Sequence record: MT932213.1
Strand: one strand, 5' to 3'
Source of the DNA: Escherichia phage VEc74
Length of the DNA stretch: 64,000 nucleotides
In this document: positions 18,426 through 60,935 of the stretch, piece after piece
Position numbering within the stretch: position 1 is the stretch's first letter
How the letters are laid out: each line of letters starts with the position of its first letter
Position numbers and translations under genes: made by a program
Notes under the pieces: model-generated
What the model was told of the DNA's origin: nothing
Databases searched by the model: none
The model's input: only the letters and a program-made list of their open reading frames with translations

Positions 18426-18903
18426 AGAAGTTTCTATTCCTAAAATGGGTCTTAAACATTATAACATTTTAAAAGATGTTAAAGGTCCTGATGAAAATTT
18501 AAAACTTCTTATTGATTCTATTTGTCCGAATTTATCACCGGCAGAAGTTGATTTCGTTTCTATTCATTTATTGGAATTTAATGGAAAGATTAAATCTCGT
18601 AAAGAAATAGATGGTTATACTTATGACATTAATGATGTTTATGTGTGCCAAAGATTAGAATTTCAATACCAAGGAAATACATTTTATTTTAGACCTCCTG
18701 GAAAATTTGAACAATTTTTAACGGTGAGCGATATGTTATCTAAATGCTTACTTAGGGTCAACGATGAAGTTAAAGAAATTAATTTTCTTGAGATGCCAGC
18801 ATTCGTTTTAAAATGGGCAAATGATATTTTTACAACTTTAGCAATTCCTGGCCCTAATGGTCCAATAACTGGAATTGGCAATATTATTGGATTATTTGAA
18901 TGA
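18370..18903 (+). CDS. 28: Baseplate hub distal subunit gp28
   Basis: 177 aa; start overlaps gene 27 end by ~56 nt. Confidence 0.8.
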
Positions 18904-20672
18904 AAAAGCCACAAGAAATGCAAACGATGCGTAGAAAAGTTATTTCAGATAATAAACCAACACAGGAAGCGGCTAAATCCGCTTCTAACACTTTATCTGG
19001 ACTTAATGATATATCTACGAAATTGGATGATGCTCAAGCTGCTTCTGAATTAATAGCTCAAACTGTCGAAGAAAAATCGAATGAAATAGTTGGAGCAATT
19101 GGTAACGTAGAAAGCGCAGTGAGTGATACTACTGCTGGTTCTGAGTTAATTGCTGAAACTGTTGAAATTGGCAACAATATTAATAAAGAAATAGGTGAAT
19201 CGCTCGGAAGCAAATTAGATAAATTAACAAGTTTACTAGAGCAAAAAATTCAGACAGCTGGAATTCAACAGACAGGAACCAGTTTAGCCACTGTTGAAAG
19301 CGCTATTCCTGTTAAAGTCGTTGAGGATGATACTGCCGAATCTGTGGGTCCTTTATTACCAGCTCCTGAAGCAGTTAATAATGATCCTGACGCTGATTTT
19401 TTCCCTACCCCTCAACCAGTTGAACCCAAACAAGAATCGCCAGAAGAAAAACAGAAAAAAGAAGCATTTAACTTAAAATTATCTCAAGCTTTAGATAAAT
19501 TAACAAAGACTGTTGATTTTGGATTTAAGAAATCTATTTCAATTAGTGATAAAATATCAAGCATGTTATTTAAGTACACCATCAGTGCTGCTATTGAAGC
19601 CGCTAAAATGACTGCAATGATATTGGCTGTTGTTGTTGGAATAGATCTGCTGATGGTTCACTTTAAATATTGGTCAGATAAATTTTCAAAAGCCTGGGAT
19701 TTATTTAATACTGACTTTACTAAATTCTCTAGCGAAACCGGAACATGGGGTCCTTTATTACAGAGCATCTTTGATTCTATTGATAAAATTAAACAACTTT
19801 GGGAAGCGGGAGATTGGGGCGGATTGACAGTAGCTATTGTTGAAGGGCTTGGAAAGGTTCTTTATAATTTAGGAGAACTTATTCAATTAGGTATGGCTAA
19901 ATTATCTGCGGCAATTCTTCGAGTTATTCCTGGAATGAAAGATACCGCTGATGAAGTAGAAGGAAGAGCGCTGGAAAATTTCCAAAATACTACAAATGCT
20001 TCTCTTAGCAAAGAAGATCAAGAAAAAGTTGCAAATTATCAATATAAAAGAATGAATGGCGATCTTGGTCCAATAGCAAAAGGATTAGACAAAATTGCGA
20101 ACTGGAAAACTCGTGCTTCTAACTGGATTCGTGGTGTTGATAATAAAGAAGCACTAACGACTGATGAAGAGAGAGCAGAGGAAGAAGAAAAATTAAAGCA
20201 ACTTTCTCCGGAAGAAGCTAAAATTGCTTTAATGAAAGCTAATGAAGCTCGTGCTGCTATGAATCGTTTTGAACAATATGCCGATTCAGCTGATATGAGT
20301 AAAGACTCAACAGTTAAATCAGTTGAATCTGCCTATGAAGACCTTAAAAAACGGATGGATGACCCGGATTTAAATAATTCACCGGCAGTTAAAAAAGAAC
20401 TTGCTTCTAGATTTGCTAAAATTGATGCTACTTATCAAGAGCTCAAGAAAAATCAGCCTAATGCCAAACCTGAAACTTCTGCTAAATCACCAGAAGCGAA
20501 ACAGGTTCAGGTGATTGAAAAGAACAGAGCACAGCAAGCTCCTGTTCAACAAGCATCTCCTTCAATCAATAATACTAATAATGTTATTAAGAAAAATACT
20601 GTCGTTCATAATATGACACCTGTCACAAGCACAACTGCTCCTGGTGTATTTGGCGCGACTGGAGTTAATTAA
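18900..20672 (+). CDS. 29: Baseplate hub / tail length determining protein gp29
   Basis: 590 aa, T4 size and synteny. Confidence 0.9.
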   Translation: MKKPQEMQTMRRKVISDNKPTQEAAKSASNTLSGLNDISTKLDDAQAASELIAQTVEEKSNEIVGAIGNVESAVSDTTAGSELIAETVEIGNNINKEIGESLGSKLDKLTSLLEQKIQTAGIQQTGTSLATVESAIPVKVVEDDTAESVGPLLPAPEAVNNDPDADFFPTPQPVEPKQESPEEKQKKEAFNLKLSQALDKLTKTVDFGFKKSISISDKISSMLFKYTISAAIEAAKMTAMILAVVVGIDLLMVHFKYWSDKFSKAWDLFNTDFTKFSSETGTWGPLLQSIFDSIDKIKQLWEAGDWGGLTVAIVEGLGKVLYNLGELIQLGMAKLSAAILRVIPGMKDTADEVEGRALENFQNTTNASLSKEDQEKVANYQYKRMNGDLGPIAKGLDKIANWKTRASNWIRGVDNKEALTTDEERAEEEEKLKQLSPEEAKIALMKANEARAAMNRFEQYADSADMSKDSTVKSVESAYEDLKKRMDDPDLNNSPAVKKELASRFAKIDATYQELKKNQPNAKPETSAKSPEAKQVQVIEKNRAQQAPVQQASPSINNTNNVIKKNTVVHNMTPVTSTTAPGVFGATGVN

Positions 20673-20680
20673 GGAATAAT

Positions 20681-21775
20681 ATGGCAATTGTTAAAGAAAT
20701 AACTGCTGATTTAATTAAAAAGTCTGGTGAGAAAATTTCAGCCGGACAGAGTACTAAATCGGAAGTAGGAACTAAAACATACACTGCCCAGTTTCCAACT
20801 GGGCGTGCTAGTGGTAATGACACTACAGGGGACTTCCAGGTAACAGATCTGTATAAGAATGGATTATTATTTACTGCATACAATATGTCATCTAGGGATT
20901 CTGGAAGTCTTAGATCGATGAGATCTAACTACTCTTCTTCATCTTCGAGTATTTTACGTACAGCAAGAAACACTATTAGTAGTACAGTATCAAAACTATC
21001 AAATGGATTAATATCAAATAATAATTCAGGAACAATAAGTAAAGCTCCTATCGCAAACATTCTTTTACCGAGATCTAAATCTGATGTTGATACATCATCA
21101 CATAGATTTAATGATGTTCAAGAAAGCCTTATCAGTAGAGGCGGAGGTACTGCTACTGGAGTGCTAAGTAATATTGCTTCAACCGCAGTATTTGGGGCGC
21201 TGGAAAGTATAACACAAGGTATAATGGCTGATAATAATGAACAGATTTATACGACAGCCAGAAGTATGTATGGTGGTGCTGAAAATAGAACTAAAGTGTT
21301 TACATGGGATTTGACTCCACGTTCAACAGAAGATTTAATGGCTATTATTAATATCTATCAATATTTTAATTATTTTTCTTATGGTGAAACGGGTAAATCT
21401 CAATATGCTGCTGAAATAAAGGGGTATTTAGATGATTGGTATCGTTCTACGTTAATTGAACCTTTATCTCCGGAAGACGCAGCTAAAAATAAAACACTAT
21501 TTGAGAAAATGACATCGAGTTTAACTAACGTTCTAGTAGTTTCAAACCCGACAATTTGGATGGTGAAAAACTTTGGTGCAACATCTAAGTTTGATGGAAA
21601 AACGGAAATATTTGGCCCATGTCAAATCCAGAGTATCAGATTTGATAAAACACCCAATGGTAACTTTAACGGATTAGCTATTGCTCCAAACCTCCCTAGT
21701 ACATTTACTCTCGAGATTACTATGAGAGAAATTATCACGTTAAACCGTGCTTCTTTATATGCGGGGACTTTTTAA
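20681..21775 (+). CDS. 48: Baseplate tail tube cap gp48
   Basis: 364 aa, T4 size and synteny. Confidence 0.9.
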   Translation: MAIVKEITADLIKKSGEKISAGQSTKSEVGTKTYTAQFPTGRASGNDTTGDFQVTDLYKNGLLFTAYNMSSRDSGSLRSMRSNYSSSSSSILRTARNTISSTVSKLSNGLISNNNSGTISKAPIANILLPRSKSDVDTSSHRFNDVQESLISRGGGTATGVLSNIASTAVFGALESITQGIMADNNEQIYTTARSMYGGAENRTKVFTWDLTPRSTEDLMAIINIYQYFNYFSYGETGKSQYAAEIKGYLDDWYRSTLIEPLSPEDAAKNKTLFEKMTSSLTNVLVVSNPTIWMVKNFGATSKFDGKTEIFGPCQIQSIRFDKTPNGNFNGLAIAPNLPSTFTLEITMREIITLNRASLYAGTF

Positions 21776-22740
21776 TGTATTCTTTAGAGGAATTTAATAA
21801 TCAAGCAATAAACGCAGATTTCCAACGTAATAATATGTTTAGCTGCGTTTTTGCAACAACTCCATCAACTAAAAGCTCTTCGTTGATAAGTTCAATTAGC
21901 AACTTTTCTTATAATAACTTGGGCCTAAATTCAGATTGGTTAGGATTAACTCAAGGCGATATTAATCAGGGAATTACCACGCTAATTACAGCTGGCACAC
22001 AAAAACTGATAAGAAAATCAGGGGTTAGTAAATATCTTATTGGTGCCATGAGTCAACGTACAGTTCAAAGTTTATTAGGCTCATTTACAGTTGGTACATA
22101 TTTAATTGACTTCTTTAACATGGCATATAACTCATCTGGATTGATGATATACTCTGTAAAAATGCCAGAGAATAGATTATCATATGAAACTGACTGGAAC
22201 TATAATTCTCCTAATATTCGTATAACTGGGAGAGAATTAGACCCTTTGGTTATTTCATTTAGAATGGACTCAGAAGCTTGTAACTATCGTGCAATGCAAG
22301 ACTGGGTTAACTCTGTTCAAGACCCAGTAACTGGATTACGTGCTTTGCCACAAGATGTCGAGGCAGATATTCAGGTTAATCTTCATTCTCGTAATGGATT
22401 GCCTCATACTGCGGTGATGTTCACCGGATGCATTCCAATATCAGTTAGCGCTCCTGAGTTATCATATGATGGAGATAACCAAATAACTACATTTGATGTT
22501 ACTTTTGCGTACAGAGTGATGCAGGCTGGAGCAGTTGATAGGCAAGCTGCGCTTGAATGGCTTGAATCTGCTGCTATAAATGGTATTCAAAGCGTTCTCG
22601 GAAATAGTGGAGGTGTTACTGGACTATCTAATTCGCTTTCACGACTCAGTAGATTAGGGGGAACTGCAGGAAGCATTTCAAACATTAATACTATGACAGG
22701 AATTGTCAATTCGCAAAGTAAAATATTAGGAGCAATATAA
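21775..22740 (+). CDS. 54: Baseplate tail tube initiator gp54
   Basis: 321 aa, T4 size and synteny; followed by hairpin terminator. Confidence 0.9.
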   Translation: MYSLEEFNNQAINADFQRNNMFSCVFATTPSTKSSSLISSISNFSYNNLGLNSDWLGLTQGDINQGITTLITAGTQKLIRKSGVSKYLIGAMSQRTVQSLLGSFTVGTYLIDFFNMAYNSSGLMIYSVKMPENRLSYETDWNYNSPNIRITGRELDPLVISFRMDSEACNYRAMQDWVNSVQDPVTGLRALPQDVEADIQVNLHSRNGLPHTAVMFTGCIPISVSAPELSYDGDNQITTFDVTFAYRVMQAGAVDRQAALEWLESAAINGIQSVLGNSGGVTGLSNSLSRLSRLGGTAGSISNINTMTGIVNSQSKILGAI

Positions 22741-22744
22741 CAAT

Positions 22745-22762
22745 GGGGACCGAAAGGTCCCC
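22745..22762. terminator. Bidirectional hairpin GGGGACC-GAAA-GGUCCCC between gene 54 and the alt operon
   Basis: Perfect 7-bp stem, GAAA loop, T-run follows on plus strand. Confidence 0.7.
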
Positions 22763-22768
22763 ATATTT

Positions 22769-23059
22769 TTATTTACGGAATGAAATGAAAGCAGCAACTG
22801 AAGCAACTAAACTGTCTTCAATATAAACTTCAATTTTTACCGGAGCTTCTGACTCAAATTTACCTGTTACTACACCCTGGAAAATACTTTCAGTCTGTTC
22901 TGGCTTTGAAAAATTTTCAGAAGGAAAAATTCCGAACTTTTTATCTGTTCCAAAAATTTTAATAAATTCATCGTAAACTGCTTCATTAAAAGCGTTATCA
23001 GCAGGAATAACGCCTTCAACTACAAGTTCTTGACCTAAAAAGCGCAAAGAAGATTTCAT
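22769..23059 (-). CDS. Hypothetical protein (alt-downstream ORF)
   Basis: 96-aa ORF with its own early-type promoter and SD GAGGA. Confidence 0.55.
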   Translation of the reverse strand: MKSSLRFLGQELVVEGVIPADNAFNEAVYDEFIKIFGTDKKFGIFPSENFSKPEQTESIFQGVVTGKFESEAPVKIEVYIEDSLVASVAAFISFRK

Positions 23060-23090: not shown

Positions 23091-23120
23091 ACTATAACAC
23101 AACATAAGGAACTTGTAAAC
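23091..23120 (-). promoter_or_regulatory. T4 early promoter (GTTTACA -35, N17, TATAGT -10), part of a repeated promoter/leader cassette
   Basis: Minus strand GTTTACA-17 nt-TATAGT; leader and GAGGA SD before 96-aa ORF; near-identical copy upstream of alc. Confidence 0.6.
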
Positions 23121-25177
23121 TACATTTTGAACTTTTTAGACATTCCGTTGATGTTAACCAAAGAAGCTAAGATTTGAGAAACTTCGTTTTCCTCTTCTTT
23201 TGATTCTTCTACAAGGAATTGATTAAATCCAACCATTGGACGAACTTCACCAGTTTCCATTAGATGGTCGCCATCATATACTGATTCTTCTAATTGTTCA
23301 GAAGGAGGAACGATTGTACCTTCGATTAGATACTTGTTATAAGCCGTTTCTTTCATAAAGTACGTACTTACTTTATTAATCTTCAGTAAAATTCCACGAG
23401 GTAGAATAACTTCAGCTTCTGATGGAAATCCTGATAAATGACCTGGAACGATAACTTTGATTCGCTCAGCTCCTTTAATTACCATACCCACGCTAGTTTC
23501 AGCATCTTCATTGGCATATGTAGAATGACTACCCATATGCATCAAATGTTCTGCATCAACGGAACCTTCTCCTTCACCAGAAAATACTGCGCCGGAATCA
23601 TCTAGAGCCATATAGTTTTTACCATGCTCACCGAAGATATTTGGTTTAAGCGATGTCGATACGAAGTTCTTGAAATAGAACATTTTGTTTTCAATGTTAT
23701 GACGCAAAGTTTTAAAGGTAACTTCTTGTCCACGGTAAAGTGTAGTTCCTGGAGGAAGAACTGAACCTTTAGCGAATGCAGAATCCAACGTCTCGATGTG
23801 CTTAATAGCTCGTTCCATATATTCTTCACGGGTAGAATCTGGTTTACCCAAAAGGAACGAGTTCATTTCAACATATGAATCTGCACAATAATCTTCAATT
23901 ACATCAGACTCAGCCTGAGTCAGTCCTTTTGGAGTTACTTCAGTACTTGCATATTCATATGCCTGAGCAGCAGATTCATTAATCAATTTATAAATGCCAT
24001 TCATGACAAATTGAATAATAGCTGTCTTTTCATCTGGCGTAGCATTAGAACCTTTAACCAAATCATTGATAATTTTCTTAATAACATCAAAGCTATTAGA
24101 AATATTAATGTCAGCAAGATCGCTTAAAATTTTATCAGTTTTATAATCAAAGAATTCTTTATTCTTTAAATATTCTTGAGAACCTTGATATGTTATATCG
24201 CTTTGCAACTTGATAGATGGATCACGTAAACGTGCATGGGCTAATGCAATATGATTTCGGAAGTTTTCTAGTTCATAATCGCTAGATTTAAAACGAGAAG
24301 CACTTCTCATACCACCAATAGCTCCTTTGTTGAAGTTTGAACCAATCTGAATAACGCCAGAGTTCATTGGTCCTTCTGCTTTATATACCGGAACTTTAGA
24401 TTCAAACTCTTGATATTTCTTAGCAGCGAAGCTATCACCCTGAAGTGAAGCATCAACAGTAGAATATTGAGCTTGTGCTGCTAATCGACGACTAATTTTA
24501 GTTTTCTGAATAACAGCTTGATCCGTGCGCTTATCATTTTCTAAAGCAATAGAAGCAGCAACAGCGACAGCTTTAGGAACAGCATTACCTGTTTTAACGT
24601 CTACATAAACATCACCGACCTTTGATTCAACTTTTGTGAATAACTCAGTTGAAATAGGAGGTACACCTGGAATGTCTTCTAAATTGGCATTTTTACGGTA
24701 AACCATAATATATGCGTACTTTTTATCATAGTCCCAGATTTCCTTTAAAAGAACATATCGACCTGCTCCTTTAGTACGTACTAAACGGTCAGCAATAACT
24801 TGCATTTGACGAGCTGCGCCATTTGTTTTACTTTTTAGTACGCGGAATAAGCATGCGTCGATTTTATACTGCTTCATTGTTTGAAGAGCAGTATCAAAAA
24901 CCGCATTAATGACGCCAATTGGATTTCCACCCAAGTTTCTAAGCTTAACCAGCGATAATTTCTCGTTGACGCCTATCATTACGATATGCATCATTTTGTC
25001 GCCTGGCTTAACGTTTTTATTTGTATCACCGCCAGAGGTGTATGTACAAAATCTAAATCCAGGAAGCACACTTTCTTCGCCGGCTTGAATAGCAAAAATT
25101 TGTGGTATTTTATGCTTAGGATTTAAGTTAACAACCGGCGCCGAAGCGCCGTCAAATAATTCTGTAATAAGTTCCAT
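23120..25177 (-). CDS. Alt-family mono-ADP-ribosyltransferase paralog (copy 1)
   Basis: 685 aa; N-terminus MELITELFDGASAPVVNLNPKHKIPQIFAIQ parallels adjacent Alt; ART motifs present (R in TLYRGQ, STS in FVSTSL, acidic EAEVILPRG). Confidence 0.8.
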   Translation of the reverse strand: MELITELFDGASAPVVNLNPKHKIPQIFAIQAGEESVLPGFRFCTYTSGGDTNKNVKPGDKMMHIVMIGVNEKLSLVKLRNLGGNPIGVINAVFDTALQTMKQYKIDACLFRVLKSKTNGAARQMQVIADRLVRTKGAGRYVLLKEIWDYDKKYAYIMVYRKNANLEDIPGVPPISTELFTKVESKVGDVYVDVKTGNAVPKAVAVAASIALENDKRTDQAVIQKTKISRRLAAQAQYSTVDASLQGDSFAAKKYQEFESKVPVYKAEGPMNSGVIQIGSNFNKGAIGGMRSASRFKSSDYELENFRNHIALAHARLRDPSIKLQSDITYQGSQEYLKNKEFFDYKTDKILSDLADINISNSFDVIKKIINDLVKGSNATPDEKTAIIQFVMNGIYKLINESAAQAYEYASTEVTPKGLTQAESDVIEDYCADSYVEMNSFLLGKPDSTREEYMERAIKHIETLDSAFAKGSVLPPGTTLYRGQEVTFKTLRHNIENKMFYFKNFVSTSLKPNIFGEHGKNYMALDDSGAVFSGEGEGSVDAEHLMHMGSHSTYANEDAETSVGMVIKGAERIKVIVPGHLSGFPSEAEVILPRGILLKINKVSTYFMKETAYNKYLIEGTIVPPSEQLEESVYDGDHLMETGEVRPMVGFNQFLVEESKEEENEVSQILASLVNINGMSKKFKM

Positions 25178-25180
25178 GAT

Positions 25181-27271
25181 TTATCCTTGAACGAACTTGT
25201 AAGGCATGTTTGTAATATCTATGCAAGACGCAATAATTCCAAGAGATGATTCTACTTTCTGTTTAACATTTGATGAAACAAATGATGCAAAGTCAACTCT
25301 ATCTTCTATATCACCTGTCATTGTAACCAATTCACCAGTTTCCATTAAATGGTCTCCGTCATAGATTACCGATTCAGTGAGTTCTTCTGTGGTCATAACT
25401 TCAGCTTGAATGAGTTTTGTATTATTAGACGTGGTTCCGTCATTATTAGAAGCATCAATTATTTTATTAACTTTGACCATCAATCCGCGCGGTAGAATAA
25501 CTTCAGCTTCTGTTGCTATTCCGAGACTTCCTGGATATACAACATTAACTTTATGAGCTCCATCAATTGCCCATCCTATTTGAACTTTAACGTATTCAGG
25601 ATTTTCTTTATACGCTCTTATTTCGTTTGGATTAATAGTTATTCCTTCTTCATTTTTATCAACTGTTAATTCATTACGAGCTTCTGGTTCTAAAAGACCA
25701 ATACCAGCATGTGTAATTCCAAAACGTCCAAAAATGATAGGAGTTAAAGAAGTAGATACAAAATTTCTGAAATAGAACACTTTATTTTTAACTAGTGCTT
25801 CGTATATAGGAGCAGTCATACTTTGAGCACGATAAACTGTAATGCCTTCCGGTATGCGGTCACCATTTTCAAAAGCTGAATCTAAATTATTTATAGCAGA
25901 TTCAATTTCTTTTTCACTCATTACATCATATCGTTCTGGATTGTAACGACCTAAAAGAAGATTATTAATGTCTGTATATCCTGAACCGCAATATTCTCTA
26001 ATGCCACGCTTTTGTGATGGAGTATATTTAGAACCATCACGGGCAATAGTAATATCAATCATTGGACCAGCACCAATTCCAGAAAAGCTATAAATCATTC
26101 GTTTGAGGAATTTAGTTTTTGCTGCATTCCAGGCATTTTTAGTTATTTCTCCCCAGACTTCATCTGGCTGCCCTTTACGAGTTTTATTATGTTTATCAAG
26201 CCAATTATCTTTATATTCTTCAAAGAGTTGATTAACAGCTGCTGCGTATTTCTCTAAACATTTTATTGAAGTAGTTGGTTCATTTTTAATCGCATTAAGA
26301 ATTACATCTTTAATTTTTTCAGAAACTTCATCAACCTCACTTTTTGAAAAGAATTTATATTCATAGTGAAGTTCATTTGCAGTTCCTTCAGCAATAATTT
26401 TTGCTGCCTTAGTTTTAGAAGCTAATGAATTAATTCCAAGCTTCATTTCTTCTGCTTCGGGAATTAAAGGAGCAGTAGCAGGTTTATTAAAATTAGCTGC
26501 GGTAGATTCATACTTCTGGAATAATTCACTTTCAAATCTAGAAGATTCTAATGATTGACTTTGCGCAATTGCTCTACGGGAAATTTTAACTTTAACGATT
26601 ACAGCTTGATCAGAACGTTTATCATTTTCTTGCGCAATAGATGCTGCAATTGCCTCATTTTTAGTTACTTGAGCTCCAGTATCTTTATTGATATAAACAT
26701 CACCGACCTTCGATTCAACTTTAGTAAAGAGTTCGGTACTAATTTCCGGAACTCCTGGAATGTCTTCTAGTGATACATTTTTGCGATGTATAAGAATATA
26801 TGCATACTTTTTATCATAATCCCAGAGTTCCTTAAGAAGGACGTATCTGCCACCTGAACGACTACGGATAAGTCTATCAGCAATAACTTGAATTTGTCGA
26901 GCTTGACCAGCAGTTTTAGACTTAAGAATACGGAGCATACAAGCATCAATTTTATATTGACGCATTGTTTGCATTGCAACAGTAAAAACTGAATTGATAT
27001 AATTAATTGGACTTGGACCAAGACCTTTCAATTTAGCAATTGAACCTTTAGCAGTTAATGTAAAAGGAACAATATGCATCATTTTATCGCCCATCTTTAA
27101 ATCACGATTAGTATCACCTCCAGATGTATAGGTACATAAACGAAAGCCTGGTTGTTCAATTGCATCATCAACGTGAACTGAAAAAATTTGCGGTATTTTC
27201 TTCTTTGGATTTAAGTTTGTAATCGGAAGAGTAGTATCTTCGTCAAATAATTCTGTAATGAGTTCCATCAT
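25181..27271 (-). CDS. alt: Alt mono-ADP-ribosyltransferase (virion-packaged, modifies host RNA polymerase)
   Basis: 696 aa; ART motifs (TVYRAQ, FVSTSL, EAEVILPRG); adjacent to ligase gene 30 as T4 alt; minus-strand late-promoter motif ~20 nt upstream. Confidence 0.85.
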   Translation of the reverse strand: MMELITELFDEDTTLPITNLNPKKKIPQIFSVHVDDAIEQPGFRLCTYTSGGDTNRDLKMGDKMMHIVPFTLTAKGSIAKLKGLGPSPINYINSVFTVAMQTMRQYKIDACMLRILKSKTAGQARQIQVIADRLIRSRSGGRYVLLKELWDYDKKYAYILIHRKNVSLEDIPGVPEISTELFTKVESKVGDVYINKDTGAQVTKNEAIAASIAQENDKRSDQAVIVKVKISRRAIAQSQSLESSRFESELFQKYESTAANFNKPATAPLIPEAEEMKLGINSLASKTKAAKIIAEGTANELHYEYKFFSKSEVDEVSEKIKDVILNAIKNEPTTSIKCLEKYAAAVNQLFEEYKDNWLDKHNKTRKGQPDEVWGEITKNAWNAAKTKFLKRMIYSFSGIGAGPMIDITIARDGSKYTPSQKRGIREYCGSGYTDINNLLLGRYNPERYDVMSEKEIESAINNLDSAFENGDRIPEGITVYRAQSMTAPIYEALVKNKVFYFRNFVSTSLTPIIFGRFGITHAGIGLLEPEARNELTVDKNEEGITINPNEIRAYKENPEYVKVQIGWAIDGAHKVNVVYPGSLGIATEAEVILPRGLMVKVNKIIDASNNDGTTSNNTKLIQAEVMTTEELTESVIYDGDHLMETGELVTMTGDIEDRVDFASFVSSNVKQKVESSLGIIASCIDITNMPYKFVQG

Positions 27272-27291: not shown

Positions 27292-27299
27292 TATTTATA
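27292..27299 (-). promoter_or_regulatory. Late promoter motif (TATAAATA on minus strand) upstream of alt
   Basis: Forward TATTTATA ~20 nt upstream of alt ATG; consistent with late expression of a head-packaged protein. Confidence 0.55.
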
Positions 27300-27307
27300 A
27301 AATTAAA

Positions 27308-27319
27308 GGCCCGAAGGCC
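27308..27319 (-). terminator. Hairpin GGCC-CGAA-GGCC flanked by AAA/TTT
   Basis: Small palindromic hairpin abutting the stop of the 62-aa ORF. Confidence 0.35.
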
Positions 27320-27320
27320 T

Positions 27321-27509
27321 TTAATAATCTATAGGTAAGAGAGTACGATATATTTCAAACTTTGGACCTTTTTCATAAGCATCAAAAGTTTCTGTGAATT
27401 TATTATAAGCATATGCATCGATAAATTCAATCATGATTTGTGATACAGAAGTAGAAACATCTCCACCTTCTTTTTGAGCCACGACAATTGTTTCTAAGTA
27501 AGCTTTCAT
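27321..27509 (-). CDS. Hypothetical small protein between ligase and alt
   Basis: 62-aa ORF, start overlaps ligase stop (ATGA-type coupling). Confidence 0.5.
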   Translation of the reverse strand: MKAYLETIVVAQKEGGDVSTSVSQIMIEFIDAYAYNKFTETFDAYEKGPKFEIYRTLLPIDY

Positions 27510-28969
27510 AAACCAGTTACCTCATGAAAATCACCAAATACATCTTCGAACGTATTAGCTTTAGTTTTATCTTCGCGTAAACGAATCGCAATTGGAAGAA
27601 ATAATTTAACGTAATCAGTGCGGCCATCAGATTTTAACCAACCGTTGCATTCGCACTCTAGAATTTTTCCAATATAATAATTTTGGTTTTCCATAATGCG
27701 AGTACGGTCAAGTTCATGCGATTTTACACCGGCTTTATCTTTTAAGCCTGAACCAGCATTTACTTTAATTTTTCCACACTCTGACTCAAGAATAAATCCA
27801 CCTGCTTTAGTAGGGTCTTTACGGTGAGGATAAATTCCTACAATTTTTAAATCAACATCAATTACTTCTTTAAATTTATAGAGATTTTTTGAACGAGCAT
27901 TTTCCCATAATCCATCGATATTTTTGAGAATAATACCTTCAAGACCTTGGTCAATATACTTTTTATAAATTACCTTAGCTTCATCTAGGTTATTTACTAC
28001 CTGGTTTTCAATTAAAATTACTTTATCATATCCCGATGTCATTTGTTCTAGTTTAGAAAAACGTACATCATATTTCAAACGAAATGCTGGAAGACCGTAT
28101 ATTTCTACTAATGGAACATAATCCCAGACCTGAAACTTCATGCATTGTGCTTCTTTTTCTGAAATAGTTCCCTTTAAAGATTTATTGGCGATTCCATTAG
28201 AAGCAGTACGTGATTCAGCTACTTCAGCGAATTCTTTAACTTTACTGTTTTCAGGATGAGCATCAAAAAGAAAATCTAGGCCTTCTGGCTCCTTTTTAAC
28301 TTGCTCATGGTATACCAATTCGCCATCAATTAACACACCTTCTGGATGAATCTGGCGGGCTTCAGCGGTCATTTTGATTAACTCTTCTTTAAGAAGATCT
28401 AATCCTAGATATTCATTACCAGCTCGTGATAAAAGACGAACATCATCTAATTCATCGCCTCGGACTTCAGCAAAACACCGAGCTCCATCAGCTTTTAACT
28501 GCGCAAAAGCTGGAAACTTGATATTCTTACTAATGCCTTTTTCATCATAAGAACTTGCCAGCATTTGAGGTTGTTCAGGAATTAAACCTGGCCAAACTTT
28601 GTTTGCAATAGATACTGAAGCACCGCATTCAAGGTCTCGCATCATCACTCGACGCAAAACTTCAACATCATCTTTTTTACCATCGGTGATATATCCAGTT
28701 AATTCCTCAATTGCTGCATTTCCAGTCAATTTCCGAGTAGCTAATGTAAATTCAATGAAGTCAAGCATATCGGTAAGAGTCAACATTCCAAAACTCTGGG
28801 TAGCAATACCCGGTTTAGGCCATTTCTTGATATAATACTGTAACCCACGAGAATAAGTCAGACGATATACTCGTTTAAGCAATTCATTATCTTTATTCTT
28901 TTCAAGAATTGCTTGCTTCTGCTTAGTTGAACCAATAGATGCTATTTCGTTCAGAATTTTAAGAATCAT
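27506..28969 (-). CDS. 30: ATP-dependent DNA ligase gp30
   Basis: 487 aa, MILKILNEIASIGSTKQKQAILEKNKDNELLKRVYRLTYSRGLQYYIKKWPKPG... matches T4 DNA ligase; adenylation motif KADGAR. Confidence 0.97.
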   Translation of the reverse strand: MILKILNEIASIGSTKQKQAILEKNKDNELLKRVYRLTYSRGLQYYIKKWPKPGIATQSFGMLTLTDMLDFIEFTLATRKLTGNAAIEELTGYITDGKKDDVEVLRRVMMRDLECGASVSIANKVWPGLIPEQPQMLASSYDEKGISKNIKFPAFAQLKADGARCFAEVRGDELDDVRLLSRAGNEYLGLDLLKEELIKMTAEARQIHPEGVLIDGELVYHEQVKKEPEGLDFLFDAHPENSKVKEFAEVAESRTASNGIANKSLKGTISEKEAQCMKFQVWDYVPLVEIYGLPAFRLKYDVRFSKLEQMTSGYDKVILIENQVVNNLDEAKVIYKKYIDQGLEGIILKNIDGLWENARSKNLYKFKEVIDVDLKIVGIYPHRKDPTKAGGFILESECGKIKVNAGSGLKDKAGVKSHELDRTRIMENQNYYIGKILECECNGWLKSDGRTDYVKLFLPIAIRLREDKTKANTFEDVFGDFHEVTGL

Positions 28970-56818: not shown

Positions 56819-59800
56819 ATGGCTACTTTAAAACAAATACAATTTAAAAGAAGCAAAACTGCAGGAGCACGTCCTGCCGCTTCAGTATTAGCCGAAGGTG
56901 AATTGGCTATAAACTTAAAAGACCGTGTACTTTTTACTAAAGATGACCAAGGAAATATTATTGATCTGGGTTTTGCTAAAGGCGGTAGTATTGACGGGAA
57001 TGTTATTCATATAGGAAACTATAACCAAACTGGTGATTATACTTTAAATGGCGCATTAACTCAGACAGGTAATTTTAATTTAACTGGTATTGCTCGAGTA
57101 ACTCGCGATATTATTGCCGCTGGGCAGATTATGACTGAAGGCGGTGAACTTATTACAAAAAGTTCAGGTACAGCACATGTTCGTTTTTTCGATGGCAATA
57201 GTCGCGAACGTGGAATCATTTATGCCCCGGCTAATGATGGTTTAACTACACAAGTACTTAATATCAGGGTTCAAGACTATGCCGCTGGTAGCGAAAGCAC
57301 TTATGCATTTTCAGGCAGTGGCCTATTTACTTCACCTGAAGTATCAGCATGGAAATCTATTTCGTCTCCACAAATTCTGACCGATAAAGTTATTACAAAT
57401 GGGAAGAAGACAGGCGATTATGATATCTATTCATTATCAAATAACACTCCAATGGCAGAAGGCGAAACGGCTATTAACCACCTCCGTGTTATGCGAAATG
57501 CTGTAGGAGCAGGTATTTTCCACGAAGTTAATGTTAATGACGGAATAACCTGGTATTCCGGAGATGGCTTAGACACTTATCTTTGGTCGTTTAACTGGGC
57601 CGGTGGATTGAAAGCGGGTCGTTCTATTGCTGTTGGCCTTCCTCACGGTTCTAAAAATTATTCAGAAATGGGCACGGCTTCTATTGCTTTAGGAGATAAT
57701 GATACCGGATTTAAATGGCATCAGGATGGATATTATTTCAGCGTCAATAATGGAACGAAAACATTTTTATTTAGTCCTAGTGAAACAACTAGTCTAAGAA
57801 AATTTGTAGCTGGATATTCTACTAACGGAACCGATTTAACGACTCCTCCAACTGAAAACTATGCTCTTGCTACTGTCGTGACATATCACGATAATAACGC
57901 GTTTGGAGATGGTCAGACTCTTTTAGGATATTATCAAGGCGGTAATTATCATCACTATTTCCGCGGTAAAGGTACTACAAACATTAATACTCACGGCGGT
58001 TTGTTAGTTACTCCAGGTAATATTGATGTTATTGGCGGTTCTGTTAATATTGATGGTAGAAATAATGCTTCTACACTGATGTTTAGAGGTAACACGACCG
58101 GAGCTAGTTCAGTTGATAATATGACAATTTCTGTGTGGGGCAATACGTTTACTAATCCTAGTGTAGGTGATCGTAAAAACGTCATGGAAATTTCTGATGC
58201 AACTAGTTGGATGAGCTATATTCAAAGACTTACAACAGGTGAAGTAGAAATGAACGTTAACGGTTCATTTGAATCATCTGGTGTTACTGCTGGAAATAGA
58301 GGAGTTCACACAACGGGCGAAATTTCATCTGGGGCTGTGAATGCACTTCGTATTTGGAATGCAGATTATGGAGCCATTTTTAGACGTTCAGAAGGAAGTC
58401 TTCATATTATTCCAACTGCTTATGGTGAAGGCAAAAATGGTGATATCGGTCCACTTCGTCCGTTTAGTATGGCTTTAGATACCGGTAAAGTTACTATTCC
58501 AGATTTACAATCAAGTTACAATACGTTTGCTGCTAACGGTTATATTAAATTTGTTGGTCATGGAGCAGGTGCCGGCGGTTATGACATTCAATATGCTCAA
58601 GCAGCTCCCATTTTCCAGGAAATCGATGATGATGCCGTAAGTAAATATTACCCAATTGTTAAGCAAAAATACCTTCAAGGTAAAGCTGTTTGGTCTTTAG
58701 GTACTGAAATTAATTCGGGAACATTTGTTTTACACCATATCAAAGAAGATGGTTCACAAGGCCATACATCAAGATTTAACGCTGACGGTACAGTTAACTT
58801 CCCGGATAACGTTCAGGTCGGTGGTGGTGAAGCTACTATTGCTCGTAATGGTAATATTTTCTCGGATATTTGGAAATCGTTTACTTCTGCCGGTGATACT
58901 ACAAATATTCGCGATGCTATTGCGACTCGTGTTTCGAAAGAAGGCGACACGATGACCGGTAAGTTGACTTTATCTGCTGGAGATGATGCCCTTGTTTTAA
59001 CTGCAGGCGTGGGTGCTTCATCACACATCCGTAGTGATGTAGGTGGTATAGGTAACTGGTATATAGGCAAAGGCGGCGGCGACAATGGTCTAGGTTTTTA
59101 CAGTTACATTACACAAGGCGGTGTATACATAACAAATAACGGCGAAATAGCGCTTTCTCCTCAAGGTCAAGGAACATTTAATTTTAATAGAGACCGCCTT
59201 CATATAAACGGTACACAATGGACTGCGCACCAGGCCGGCGATTGGGGAAATCAATGGCGCCAGGAAGCTCCTGTATTTGTGGATTTTGGTAATGTTGGTA
59301 ATGATAGTTATTATCCTATTATTAAAGGAAAATCTGGTATTACTAATGAAGGTTATATATCTGGTGTAGATTTTGGTATGCGCCGTATCACTAATACATG
59401 GGCCCAAGCTATTATCCGTGTTGGTAACCAGGAAAACGGTCATGACCCACAAGCTGTCTACGAATTCCACCACAATGGAGTTATGTATGCTCCTAACATG
59501 GTTAAAACTGGAGCAAGATTATCAGCTGGCGGTGGTGACCCGGTATGGACTGGGCCATGTCTTGTTATTGGTGATAATGATACTGGATTAGTTCATGGTG
59601 GTGATGGACGAATTAACATGGTTGCAAATGGAGTGCATATTGCTTCATGGTCAGCTGCTTATCAGATCCATGAAGGTCTTTGGGATTCAACTGGTGCTTT
59701 ATGGACTGAAACAGGAAGAGCTATTATTTCTTATGGGCATTTAGTCCAACAAAGTGATGCCTATTCCACATATGTTCGAGATGTTTATGTCCGTTCTGAT

Positions 59801-60130
59801 ATTCGTGTTAAAAAAGACCTTGTTAAATTTGAAAATGCTTCTGAGAAACTTTCCAAAATTAATGGTTACACTTATATGCAGAAGCGAGGCCTAGATGAAG
59901 AAGGCAATCAGAAATGGGAACCTAACGCCGGTTTAATTGCTCAAGAAGTTCAAGCTATTTTACCAGAATTAGTTGAAGGCGACCCGGATGGTGAAGCTTT
60001 ACTTCGTTTGAACTATAACGGTGTAATTGGTTTAAATACAGCTGCAATCAATGAGCATACCGCAGAAATTGCAGAACTTAAGTCAGAGATTGAAGAACTT
60101 AAAGCATTAGTTAAATCATTGTTAAAATAA
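56819..60130 (+). CDS. 37: Long tail fibre distal subunit gp37 (T2/T6-type with C-terminal coiled-coil extension)
   Basis: 1103 aa; gp36-like N-terminus, tail-fibre repeat body; C-terminus ...[26 protein letters not shown]. Confidence 0.9.
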
Positions 60131-60135
60131 TAAGA

Positions 60136-60149
60136 GGGGCTTCGGCCCC
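60136..60149 (+). terminator. GGGGC-UUCG-GCCCC hairpin between genes 37 and 38
   Basis: Perfect stem directly after gp37 stop and just upstream of the gp38 SD. Confidence 0.45.
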
Positions 60150-60161
60150 TTGGAGGTTTAT

Positions 60162-60935
60162 ATGGCAGTTGAAGGACCGTGGGTAGGATGGTCTGCAAGG
60201 GTACAGACTGGAGACCCTTGGATGGCAGGAGCAGCCGTAAGATTAAGAATGGGTGTTCCATTTTGGATGAGTAATATGATAGGTCGATCTGTTGAAGTAA
60301 TTCACACGCTTGGAGCAGACCATAACTTCAATGGTCAGTGGTTCCGAGATAGATGTTTTGAGGCAGGTAGTACACCTATAGTGTTTAATATCACTGGAGA
60401 TTTAGTATCATATTCTAAAGATGTTCCTTTATTCTTCATGTACGGAGATACACCGAATGAATATGTTCAACTGAATATACATGGTGTAACGATGTATGGC
60501 CGTGGCGGGAATGGCGGTAGCAATAGTCCTGGCTCAGCTGGGGGTCATTGTATTCAAAATGATATTGGCGGGAGACTAAGAATTAATAATGGCGGAGCTA
60601 TTGCTGGAGGCGGCGGAGGCGGTGGCGGCGGTAACAGGGGTAGACTAGTATTTGGTGGTGGCGGTGGTCGCCCATTCGGTAGTGGCGGGTCTTCCTCTCA
60701 TATGAGTGCTGGTGCAACCGCCGGCACTATTTACGCTCCGGGTGCAGGATCTGTCGGTGAGGGGTCTCTTAGTGCATATACAGGCGGGAATGGCGGTGAA
60801 GTTGGCTCCGCAGGAGGTAGATGTAATACTCACGGTACCGGTGCAGAATATGACGGCGGCGCTGGTGGTTATGCCGTCATAGGGTCTGCTCCAACGTGGA
60901 TAAATGTTGGAGCAATATATGGTCCAAGAGTATAA
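60162..60935 (+). CDS. 38: Receptor-recognising adhesin gp38 (T2-type, glycine-rich motifs)
   Basis: ~257 aa from ATG at 60162 (GGAGG SD); poly-Gly stretches [12 protein letters not shown] and [12 protein letters not shown] typical of T2-type adhesins rather than the T4 gp38 chaperone. Confidence 0.8.
60590..60690 (+). repeat. Imperfect GGN triplet repeats encoding poly-glycine in gp38
   Basis: ggaggcggcggaggcggtggcggcggt... and ggtggtggcggtggt... Confidence 0.7.

Follow-up and report, generated by a model that had tools for sequence, protein, structure and literature searches.

Two tandem alt genes in the T-even phage VEc74: AltB as a candidate second injected ADP-ribosyltransferase, reduced to a remnant in T4

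When a T-even phage carries two alt-like genes side by side, does it inject two different enzymes into its host, or is the second gene a spare copy, a structural component or a relic? The question is raised by a 64,000-nucleotide (nt) segment of Escherichia phage VEc74 (MT932213.1; Tequatrovirus, T2-like), hereafter the window, in which two adjacent genes, here called altA and altB, encode relatives of the ADP-ribosyltransferase (ART) Alt of phage T4. T4 Alt is a head (prohead-core) protein, present in ~40 copies, which is cleaved by the prohead protease gp21 and, together with the DNA, ejected into the host (PMC9958956; PMC9026906); ADP-ribosylation of the alpha subunit of RNA polymerase is known only for this protein (PMC9958956; PMC10468400). 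We consider it probable (roughly 70%) that AltA and AltB are both functional members of the Alt family, and that AltB is a second head-packaged, gp21-processed and injected arginine-specific mono-ADP-ribosyltransferase with a target set unlike that of AltA.

A sequence-only reading of the region had pointed out two adjacent open reading frames (ORFs) of 685 and 696 amino acids (aa). Both were found on the minus strand, the altB start following the altA stop after 3 bp:

25181-27271, minus strand: altA, 696-aa ORF, T2-type allele and positional ortholog of T4 alt (PHROG 802, E = 2.8e-273); 695 aa if counted from the MELITE methionine at 27268
23120-25177, minus strand: altB (alt.-2 in RB32/T6), 685 aa (PHROG 802, E = 6.1e-256)

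Both proteins had been described as beginning with MELITELFD. It should be noted that the 696-aa ORF begins with MMELITELFD, and that the altA ribosome-binding site, GAGG, is better spaced for the second ATG (27268).

Both AltA and AltB match PHROG 802, 'Alt-like RNA polymerase ADP-ribosyltransferase', from end to end, and both score above the gathering threshold of 23.4 for PF03496 ADPrib_exo_Tox (71.9 bits for AltB, 126 bits for AltA); NCBIfam holds no family for either protein. They align with each other over their whole length (BLASTP, 41% identity, E = 1e-162), with an identity of 68% over residues 1-238, 12-16% over 239-412, 35% over 413-625 and 42% over 626-685. The close resemblance previously assigned to the N-terminal half is therefore real, but is limited to the N-terminal third, while the divergence noted in the centre and towards the C-terminus extends over the helical centre, the catalytic domain and the last 60 residues. 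The deduced plan of both proteins would comprise an N-terminal prohead-core domain, a diverged helical centre, an arginine-specific mono-ADP-ribosyltransferase domain of the C3/VIP2 type and a C-terminal propeptide. In AltB these parts are located as follows:

24464-25177, minus strand: codons 1-238, N-terminal domain (PF26846 Tevenvirinae_ADPRT), proposed capsid-core delivery module
25160-25168, minus strand: codons 4-6, I-T-E, candidate gp21 cleavage motif of the L/I-x-E type
23942-24463, minus strand: codons 239-412, central helical region, the most diverged part
23303-23941, minus strand: codons 413-625, ADP-ribosyltransferase domain
23732-23734, 23657-23659, 23417-23419 and 23411-23413, minus strand: catalytic codons R482, S507, E587 and E589, respectively
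23285-23293, minus strand: codons 629-631, L-E-E, an L-x-E motif homologous in position to LTE-619 of T4 Alt

The assignment of the N-terminal domain to PF26846 is indirect. The local copy of Pfam gave no PF26846 match for AltB, and the assignment was made through near-identical proteins for which the match is precomputed, namely P0001 (98% identical to AltB) and the called genes of contigs L017-L021; it is supported by the full-length PHROG 802 match and by the 68% identity to AltA over residues 1-238. In the AlphaFold model of AltB this domain has a mean predicted local distance difference test (pLDDT) score of 88.9, and the centre is all-helical.

The ART signature that had been recognised by eye is present in both copies. 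It reads Y481-R482, S507-T-S509 and E587-A-E589 in AltB, while AltA has YR at 480-481, STS from 506 and EAE from 588 (696-aa numbering); the family match together with this shared R/STS/ExE signature is far beyond chance. In an alignment of 78 family members, assembled from a search of 5.8 billion proteins and a search of 1.8 billion representatives, the only invariant columns are Y430, D465, R482, S507, E587, E589, R594 and G595 (AltB numbering), and the catalytic Arg, Ser-x-Ser and Glu-x-Glu residues are present in 10 out of 10 altB orthologs examined. Both copies carry E-x-E (as EAE) rather than Q-x-E; in toxins of the C3 and iota types, E-x-E is the mark of arginine-specific and Q-x-E that of asparagine-specific enzymes. 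The fold predicted for AltB is also that of an arginine-specific ART, with its NAD-binding core. A search of the PDB with the AltB sequence gave no match, and no Alt structure appears to have been solved. In T4 Alt, an E-to-A exchange at the second Glu of the ExE motif inactivates the enzyme; the mutant is named E577A, which matches the numbering from the MM start (PMC11404850).

The state of altB was evaluated by the ratio of non-synonymous to synonymous substitution rates (dN/dS) in 10 intact copies, i.e. those of the VEc74 window, T2, T6, RB32, HP3, Ac3, WL-3, VIPECOOM03 and two IMG/VR contigs. The value for the whole gene was 0.051 (mean dS 0.18, dN 0.009), with 0.016 in the N-terminal domain, 0.080 in the centre and 0.053 in the catalytic domain; summed over all pairs, 3144 synonymous differences were counted against 652 non-synonymous ones. 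For altA, a dN/dS of 0.49 obtained in the C-terminal tail was not used, being an artefact of a 2-codon indel in an ungapped comparison. With its full-length frame, its invariant catalytic residues and its low dN/dS, AltB looks functional, which agrees with the sequence-only description of the second copy as apparently intact; neither AltA nor AltB looks catalytically dead.

How altB is distributed among phages was studied in the GenBank phage collection, because a scan of IMG/VR with AltB gave five loci only, too few for a population analysis. A megablast search with the 4.9-kb region retrieved 544 phage records, 353 of which (T2, T6, RB32 and RB33 among them) had a single place matching 80% or more of the query with 97-99% identity. 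A tblastn search found AltB at an identity of 95% or higher in ~396 records, after which there is a gap down to less than 60% identity. AltA is 97-99% identical to the Alt proteins of T2, T6 and RB32 and 71% identical to T4 Alt. The alt.-2 gene of RB32 and T6 is full-length and 99% identical to altB; it was annotated there as 'alt.-2 ... similar to alt' with an 'apparent insertion in alt.-2', and RefSeq names both RB32/T6 genes 'Alt-like RNA polymerase ADP-ribosyltransferase'. The two-gene arrangement is thus the ordinary, majority state in Tequatrovirus.

The alignment with T4 suggested by the sequence-only reading was then decisive as to the reference phage, which does not possess the same pair of genes, characterised or otherwise. 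In T4 (NC_000866), alt is followed by two small ORFs, alt.-1 (61 aa, NP_049810) and alt.-2 (67 aa, NP_049809), which its annotators explained by an old duplication that covered only the first part of alt. These fragments, however, are 94-96% identical to AltB residues 1-117, as against 58-62% to AltA; they are the same gene as altB and as alt.-2 of RB32/T6, broken in T4 and intact in the latter. T4 DNA is collinear with the VEc74 window apart from two changes in altB: the loss of 1 nt from an A-run near codon 52, and a deletion of 1699 bp bounded by two copies of the 9-bp direct repeat CTAAAAAGT:

24830-24838, minus strand: upstream copy of CTAAAAAGT at altB nt 340-348, where the T4 deletion has its left end-point
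23131-23139, minus strand: downstream copy of CTAAAAAGT at altB nt 2039-2047, where the T4 deletion has its right end-point

A 121-nt probe spanning the T4 junction is contiguous in 91 records, so that environmental isolates, too, carry the T4 deletion allele; where altB is intact, the probe matches in two pieces, whose overlap is exactly the 9-nt CTAAAAAGT. From the collinearity and the behaviour of the junction probe, full-length altB is the ancestral as well as the majority state, and T4 carries a deletion allele. The direction of change, as judged from these alignments, is therefore opposite to that in the T4 and RB32/T6 annotations: there was a loss in T4 and no insertion elsewhere. In 16 metagenome contigs from several samples (L017-L019 region), altB is split into ORFs of 273 and 415 aa. 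This is an independent disruption, unlike the T4 deletion, and is either a true frameshift or a recurrent sequencing error.

If AltB acts as Alt does in T4, it should be produced while heads are being built and should carry the marks of gp21 processing. The elements relevant to expression are:

27303-27321, minus strand: GC-rich hairpin AAGGCCTTCGGGCCTTT following alt.1, visible in the sequence itself
27292-27299, minus strand: putative late promoter box TATAAATA, exact match, 21 nt upstream of the altA start
22743-22764: hairpin lying between alt.-3 and gene 54, a bidirectional terminator and the first one met downstream of the alt late promoter

The TATAAATA box upstream of altA is a putative late promoter on account of the T4 late-promoter consensus, and the AAGGCCTTCGGGCCTTT hairpin, which the annotations of phages Ac3 and fPS-2 give as a terminator, is taken to terminate transcription between the gene 30/alt.1 unit and the alt unit. 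Both are kept in all 14 Tequatrovirus loci compared, while in the Dhakavirus AnYang CATAAATA stands in place of TATAAATA. The alt genes are flanked by gene 30/alt.1 on one side and gene 54 on the other and follow a late promoter box, the position expected of members of the Alt family. The altA-stop/altB-start junction is also conserved, altB is preceded by a conserved AAGGA as its own ribosome-binding site, and on the minus strand no terminator-like site was found from 27292 to the hairpin at 22743-22764. Considering the conserved late box, the conserved junction and the lack of an intervening terminator, we infer a single late transcript of altA, altB and alt.-3, and AltB would therefore be made while heads are built.

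A separate late promoter for altB was considered in the form of a second TATAAATA inside altA (25888-25895). It was rejected as a required promoter because it is missing in several T2-type alleles and in all the T4-type alleles accompanied by an intact altB.

As for processing, the cleavage sites of T4 Alt have been mapped by mass spectrometry at ITE-6 and LTE-619, giving a mature protein of 68.2 kDa (PMC5694885), a mass that we could reproduce by calculation from the T4 sequence. At the homologous columns AltB has ITE-6 and LEE-631 and AltA has ITE-6 and LTE-632, codons 4-6 of AltB (I-T-E) being identical to the ITE-6 mapped in T4 Alt; most of the 78 family members show (L/I)-x-E at both columns. 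The mature forms predicted on this basis have masses of 69.2 kDa for AltB (residues 7-631) and 70.0 kDa for AltA. Residues 630-636 of AltB are of low confidence in the model, and the segment around residue 631 is probably exposed or disordered. In the course of infection that we propose, altA and altB would be transcribed late from the single TATAAATA promoter, altB using its own ribosome-binding site; AltA and AltB would both be built into the scaffolding core; gp21 would trim both at two sites, ITE-6 and an L-x-E lying ~55-63 residues before the C-terminus; and both would be ejected with the DNA into the host, where they would ADP-ribosylate arginines of host proteins using NAD+.

Because the centre and the substrate-recognition loops of the two proteins differ strongly, the host proteins modified by AltA and by AltB most likely form distinct sets, or sets with only a partial overlap. 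In the ADP-ribosylating turn-turn (ARTT) loop, the position three residues before the first catalytic Glu is occupied by F584 in AltB, by I in AltA and by P in T4 Alt, the family majority being Y/F. Work on C3 and iota toxins has established that this loop bears on the choice of the substrate, and by analogy the same may hold true for the difference seen in AltB. A different specificity is also favoured by the persistence of AltA-type and AltB-type effectors as separate orthologous lineages across genera.

Several points weigh against this assignment. There is no promoter proper to altB, the sole internal TATAAATA box not being conserved, and the literature searched yielded no virion proteomics, enzyme assay or mutant phenotype for AltB. 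The loop comparison rests on an alignment of variable regions, and the AltB model is poor at residues 518-539. Finally, altB is dispensable in some backgrounds, since it is deleted in T4 and in the 91 records with the T4 junction and split in the 16 contigs; having been repeatedly lost, it could be redundant rather than specialised. This last consideration leads to the alternative that we take most seriously, although we regard it as unlikely: AltB may be packaged and active, but on the same targets as AltA (the RNA polymerase alpha subunit and others), so that it adds dose or robustness and no new specificity. The delivery domain, cleavage motifs and catalytic residues common to both copies would fit this, as would the many host proteins already modified by T4 Alt (PMC10468400) and the viability of phages that have lost altB. 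One would expect a dosage copy, however, to remain similar or to undergo homogenisation, whereas the centres of the two proteins are 12-16% identical and their catalytic domains 35%; each effector lineage persists as orthologs in more than one genus and is under strong purifying selection; and the hybrid phages described below retain the AltB effector, not that of AltA.

It is less likely still that the catalytic activity of AltB is irrelevant and the protein is a part of the core or scaffold, or that it is a late enzyme acting in the producing cell without being injected. The description of T4 Alt as a prohead core protein (PMC11404850; PMC9958956) and the deduced late expression of altB are both compatible with such a role, yet T4 and its relatives can do without altB in head assembly, the catalytic domain is under the same constraint as the other parts of AltB (dN/dS 0.053) with all its catalytic residues invariant, and the propeptide motifs at the two ends of AltB match the processing of the injected T4 Alt. 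As to the idea that altB is intact in appearance only and is decaying towards the loss seen in T4, such loss is indeed documented by T4 itself, by the 91 T4-junction records and by the frameshifted metagenome contigs. Nevertheless, we consider it highly improbable and set it aside because of the dN/dS of 0.051; in addition, the frame is full-length and at least 95% identical in ~396 records, and an altB ortholog is kept in Dhakavirus. A second injected enzyme with targets of its own therefore remains our preferred reading of AltB.

The comparison with T4 also revealed that altA itself is a mosaic. At the DNA level altA and T4 alt are 97-99% identical over nt 1-720 and 99-100% identical beyond nt 1890 up to the end, with 39-79% in the stretch between them (nt 720-1890); at the protein level AltA and T4 Alt agree in 237 of 238 residues of the N-terminal domain and in 67 of 68 of the C-terminal tail, the centre being 32% identical and the catalytic domain 65%. 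To judge from these alignments, VEc74 altA differs from T4 alt only in one segment:

25379-26549, minus strand: variable centre-plus-catalytic cassette of altA, replaced with respect to T4 alt

In 318 records the T2-type cassette of altA has a counterpart with an identity of 90% or more, and in 34 others, the Dhakavirus phage Bp7 among them, one of 80-90%. T2-type and T4-type altA alleles and intact and T4-type remnant altB occur in all four combinations.

A wider view of the locus is offered by the Dhakavirus AnYang (L014, 1864-8124), which has three tandem Alt-like genes of 694, 681 and 707 aa at the same place, joined by conserved CAAGGGTAAATAATGGAA junctions of the same stop-3 nt-start type. 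The N-terminal domains of the AnYang copies are 66-89% alike among themselves and 41-46% identical to those of the VEc74 copies. Across the two phages, AltA pairs with AnYang copy 1 (94% identity in the catalytic domain, 64% in the centre) and AltB with AnYang copy 3 (55% and 46%, respectively). This pairing indicates that the delivery domain follows the phage, and that the effector cassettes belong to older lineages and pass from one phage to another; the N-terminal delivery domain is thus genus-specific and presumably tracks the head core of the phage. The middle AnYang copy, whose catalytic domain is only 32-40% identical to all the others compared, may represent a fourth effector type.

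Fusions between the two genes were found as well. The proteins P0003-P0006 are altA-type over the first ~40 to 200 residues and AltB-type after that, and in their contigs a single alt gene lies between alt.1 and alt.-3. The complete genomes of the isolates ECML-134, SCS4 and Yersinia phage PST likewise contain one alt gene, an altA-N::altB hybrid with crossovers near nt 450 and nt 300. From their structure these hybrids are evidently products of unequal crossover, and since isolates carry the single hybrid gene, viable phages with an AltB-type protein as their sole Alt effector exist. The possibility that P0003-P0006 are metagenome assembly artefacts was rejected, because isolates carry the same kind of hybrid and because the exact runs shared there by altA and altB are 18 nt at most, too short for an assembler jump at k = 99.

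In our main reading, the alt locus evolves by way of cassettes: the conserved N-terminal and C-terminal segments serve as recombination handles, through which effector cassettes are swapped, fused or deleted, and T4 is a derivative without altB. On the basis of these data a more general proposal can be advanced, to which we hold only tentatively. The alt locus may be a cassette system for injected effectors, in which a genus-specific N-terminal delivery domain and a conserved C-terminal propeptide flank interchangeable modules, at least three types of which (T4-, T2- and AltB-type) would exist in Tequatrovirus. Recombination at these flanks would rearrange the modules; each phage would inject its own one to three enzymes with different targets, possibly including defence proteins, and T4, having lost altB, would be a reduced case. 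If this is true, the 50-year picture of 'Alt' covers just one of several effector types.

Among the closest known systems is T4 Alt (gpAlt, NP_049811 / UniProt P12726), with which AltB shares the locus between alt.1/gene 30 and gene 54, the late box, the order of domains, the R-S-ExE residues, ITE-6 and the C-terminal L-x-E motif. AltB differs in being only 41% identical overall, and the altA gene beside it carries a centre-plus-catalytic cassette different from that of T4 alt, the sole allele behind all the published Alt biochemistry. T4 ModA and ModB are phage R-S-E ADP-ribosyltransferases of the same wider clade and are likewise involved in host takeover (PMC5512222; PMC10468400); unlike AltB, however, they are small, early, encoded elsewhere and not packaged, and have neither the N-terminal delivery domain nor the propeptides. 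The C3, Vis, Certhrax, iota and VIP2 toxins are 14-26% identical and are delivered by secretion or through binary toxin pores, in contrast to the phage head proposed for AltB. In combining a conserved delivery module with exchangeable enzymatic modules, the alt locus resembles polymorphic toxins and the MuF-fused or polyvalent head-packaged effectors (PMC5512222; PMC9503650), from which it differs in that it has no MuF domain or immunity gene, its cassette is flanked on both sides, and it forms a tandem array of one to three genes.

It should be stressed that the existence of two alt genes is already known: the pair is annotated in hundreds of GenBank records, and the idea of their divergence is in print. 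Paralogous alt duplications were remarked upon at the annotation level in 2006 (Nolan 2006, PMC1524935), and a 2026 genome paper reported a pair of Alt-like paralogs sharing 43% identity in a Tequatrovirus and proposed an expanded target range (PMC13600099). Apart from such annotation-level remarks and that genome note, the literature searched contained no functional study of the second copy. As far as our searches show, four points have not been stated there: the direction and mechanism of the loss in T4, by deletion between 9-bp repeats; the replacement of a cassette inside alt itself; the contrast between a genus-specific delivery domain and exchanged effectors; and the natural altA::altB hybrids. 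The discovery is a modest one, considering that the genes are annotated and the idea is published, but these points are useful because they mean that T4 does not represent its relatives at the alt locus. What is known about injected phage ADP-ribosyltransferases comes almost wholly from T4, which has one Alt allele and the dead remnant of a second gene, while most of its relatives, T2 and T6 included, would inject a second enzyme, and many also carry an Alt catalytic cassette that is not of the T4 type. Conclusions about 'Alt' drawn from T4 may therefore not transfer to the T-even phages found in therapeutic or environmental settings, and AltB is an obvious candidate for functions in host takeover or anti-defence that work on T4 would miss.

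The remaining genes around the locus are the following:

27506-28969, minus strand: gene 30, DNA ligase
27321-27509, minus strand: alt.1, 62 aa (Pfam Phage_blade), upstream neighbour of altA
22769-23059, minus strand: alt.-3, 96 aa (DUF5498), final gene of the alt unit
18900-22740, plus strand: genes 29, 48 and 54

The product of alt.1 matches the recent Pfam family PF24647, 'Phage blade protein', with E = 7.5e-29, and the gene shares 4 nt with the end of the ligase gene. Between the altB stop and alt.-3, on the minus strand at 23091-23119, there is an early-type promoter-like site, composed of GTTTACA, a 17-nt spacer preceded by TG, and TATAGT, which is kept in T4. Because of this site upstream of it, alt.-3 may be expressed early on its own, besides late read-through. 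A scan of the region for sigma-70-like promoters found 18 sites, as against 18.9 expected from shuffled sequences, i.e. no enrichment.

The record of HP3 (NC_041919, L011), one of the phages with intact altB, gives Rosemountvirus in its taxonomy line. Its alt region is that of a typical Tequatrovirus, with an AltB 98.5% identical to that of VEc74, and the placement is probably a taxonomy error in the record. Elsewhere in the window, the distal tail-fibre genes (56819-60935) are of the T2/T6 type and not of the T4 type: gp37 has 1103 aa and carries a Peptidase_S74 chaperone domain at its C-terminal end, and after it comes gp38, an adhesin of 261 aa (Pfam GP38, Gp38_N), in agreement with the T2-like character of the alt locus.

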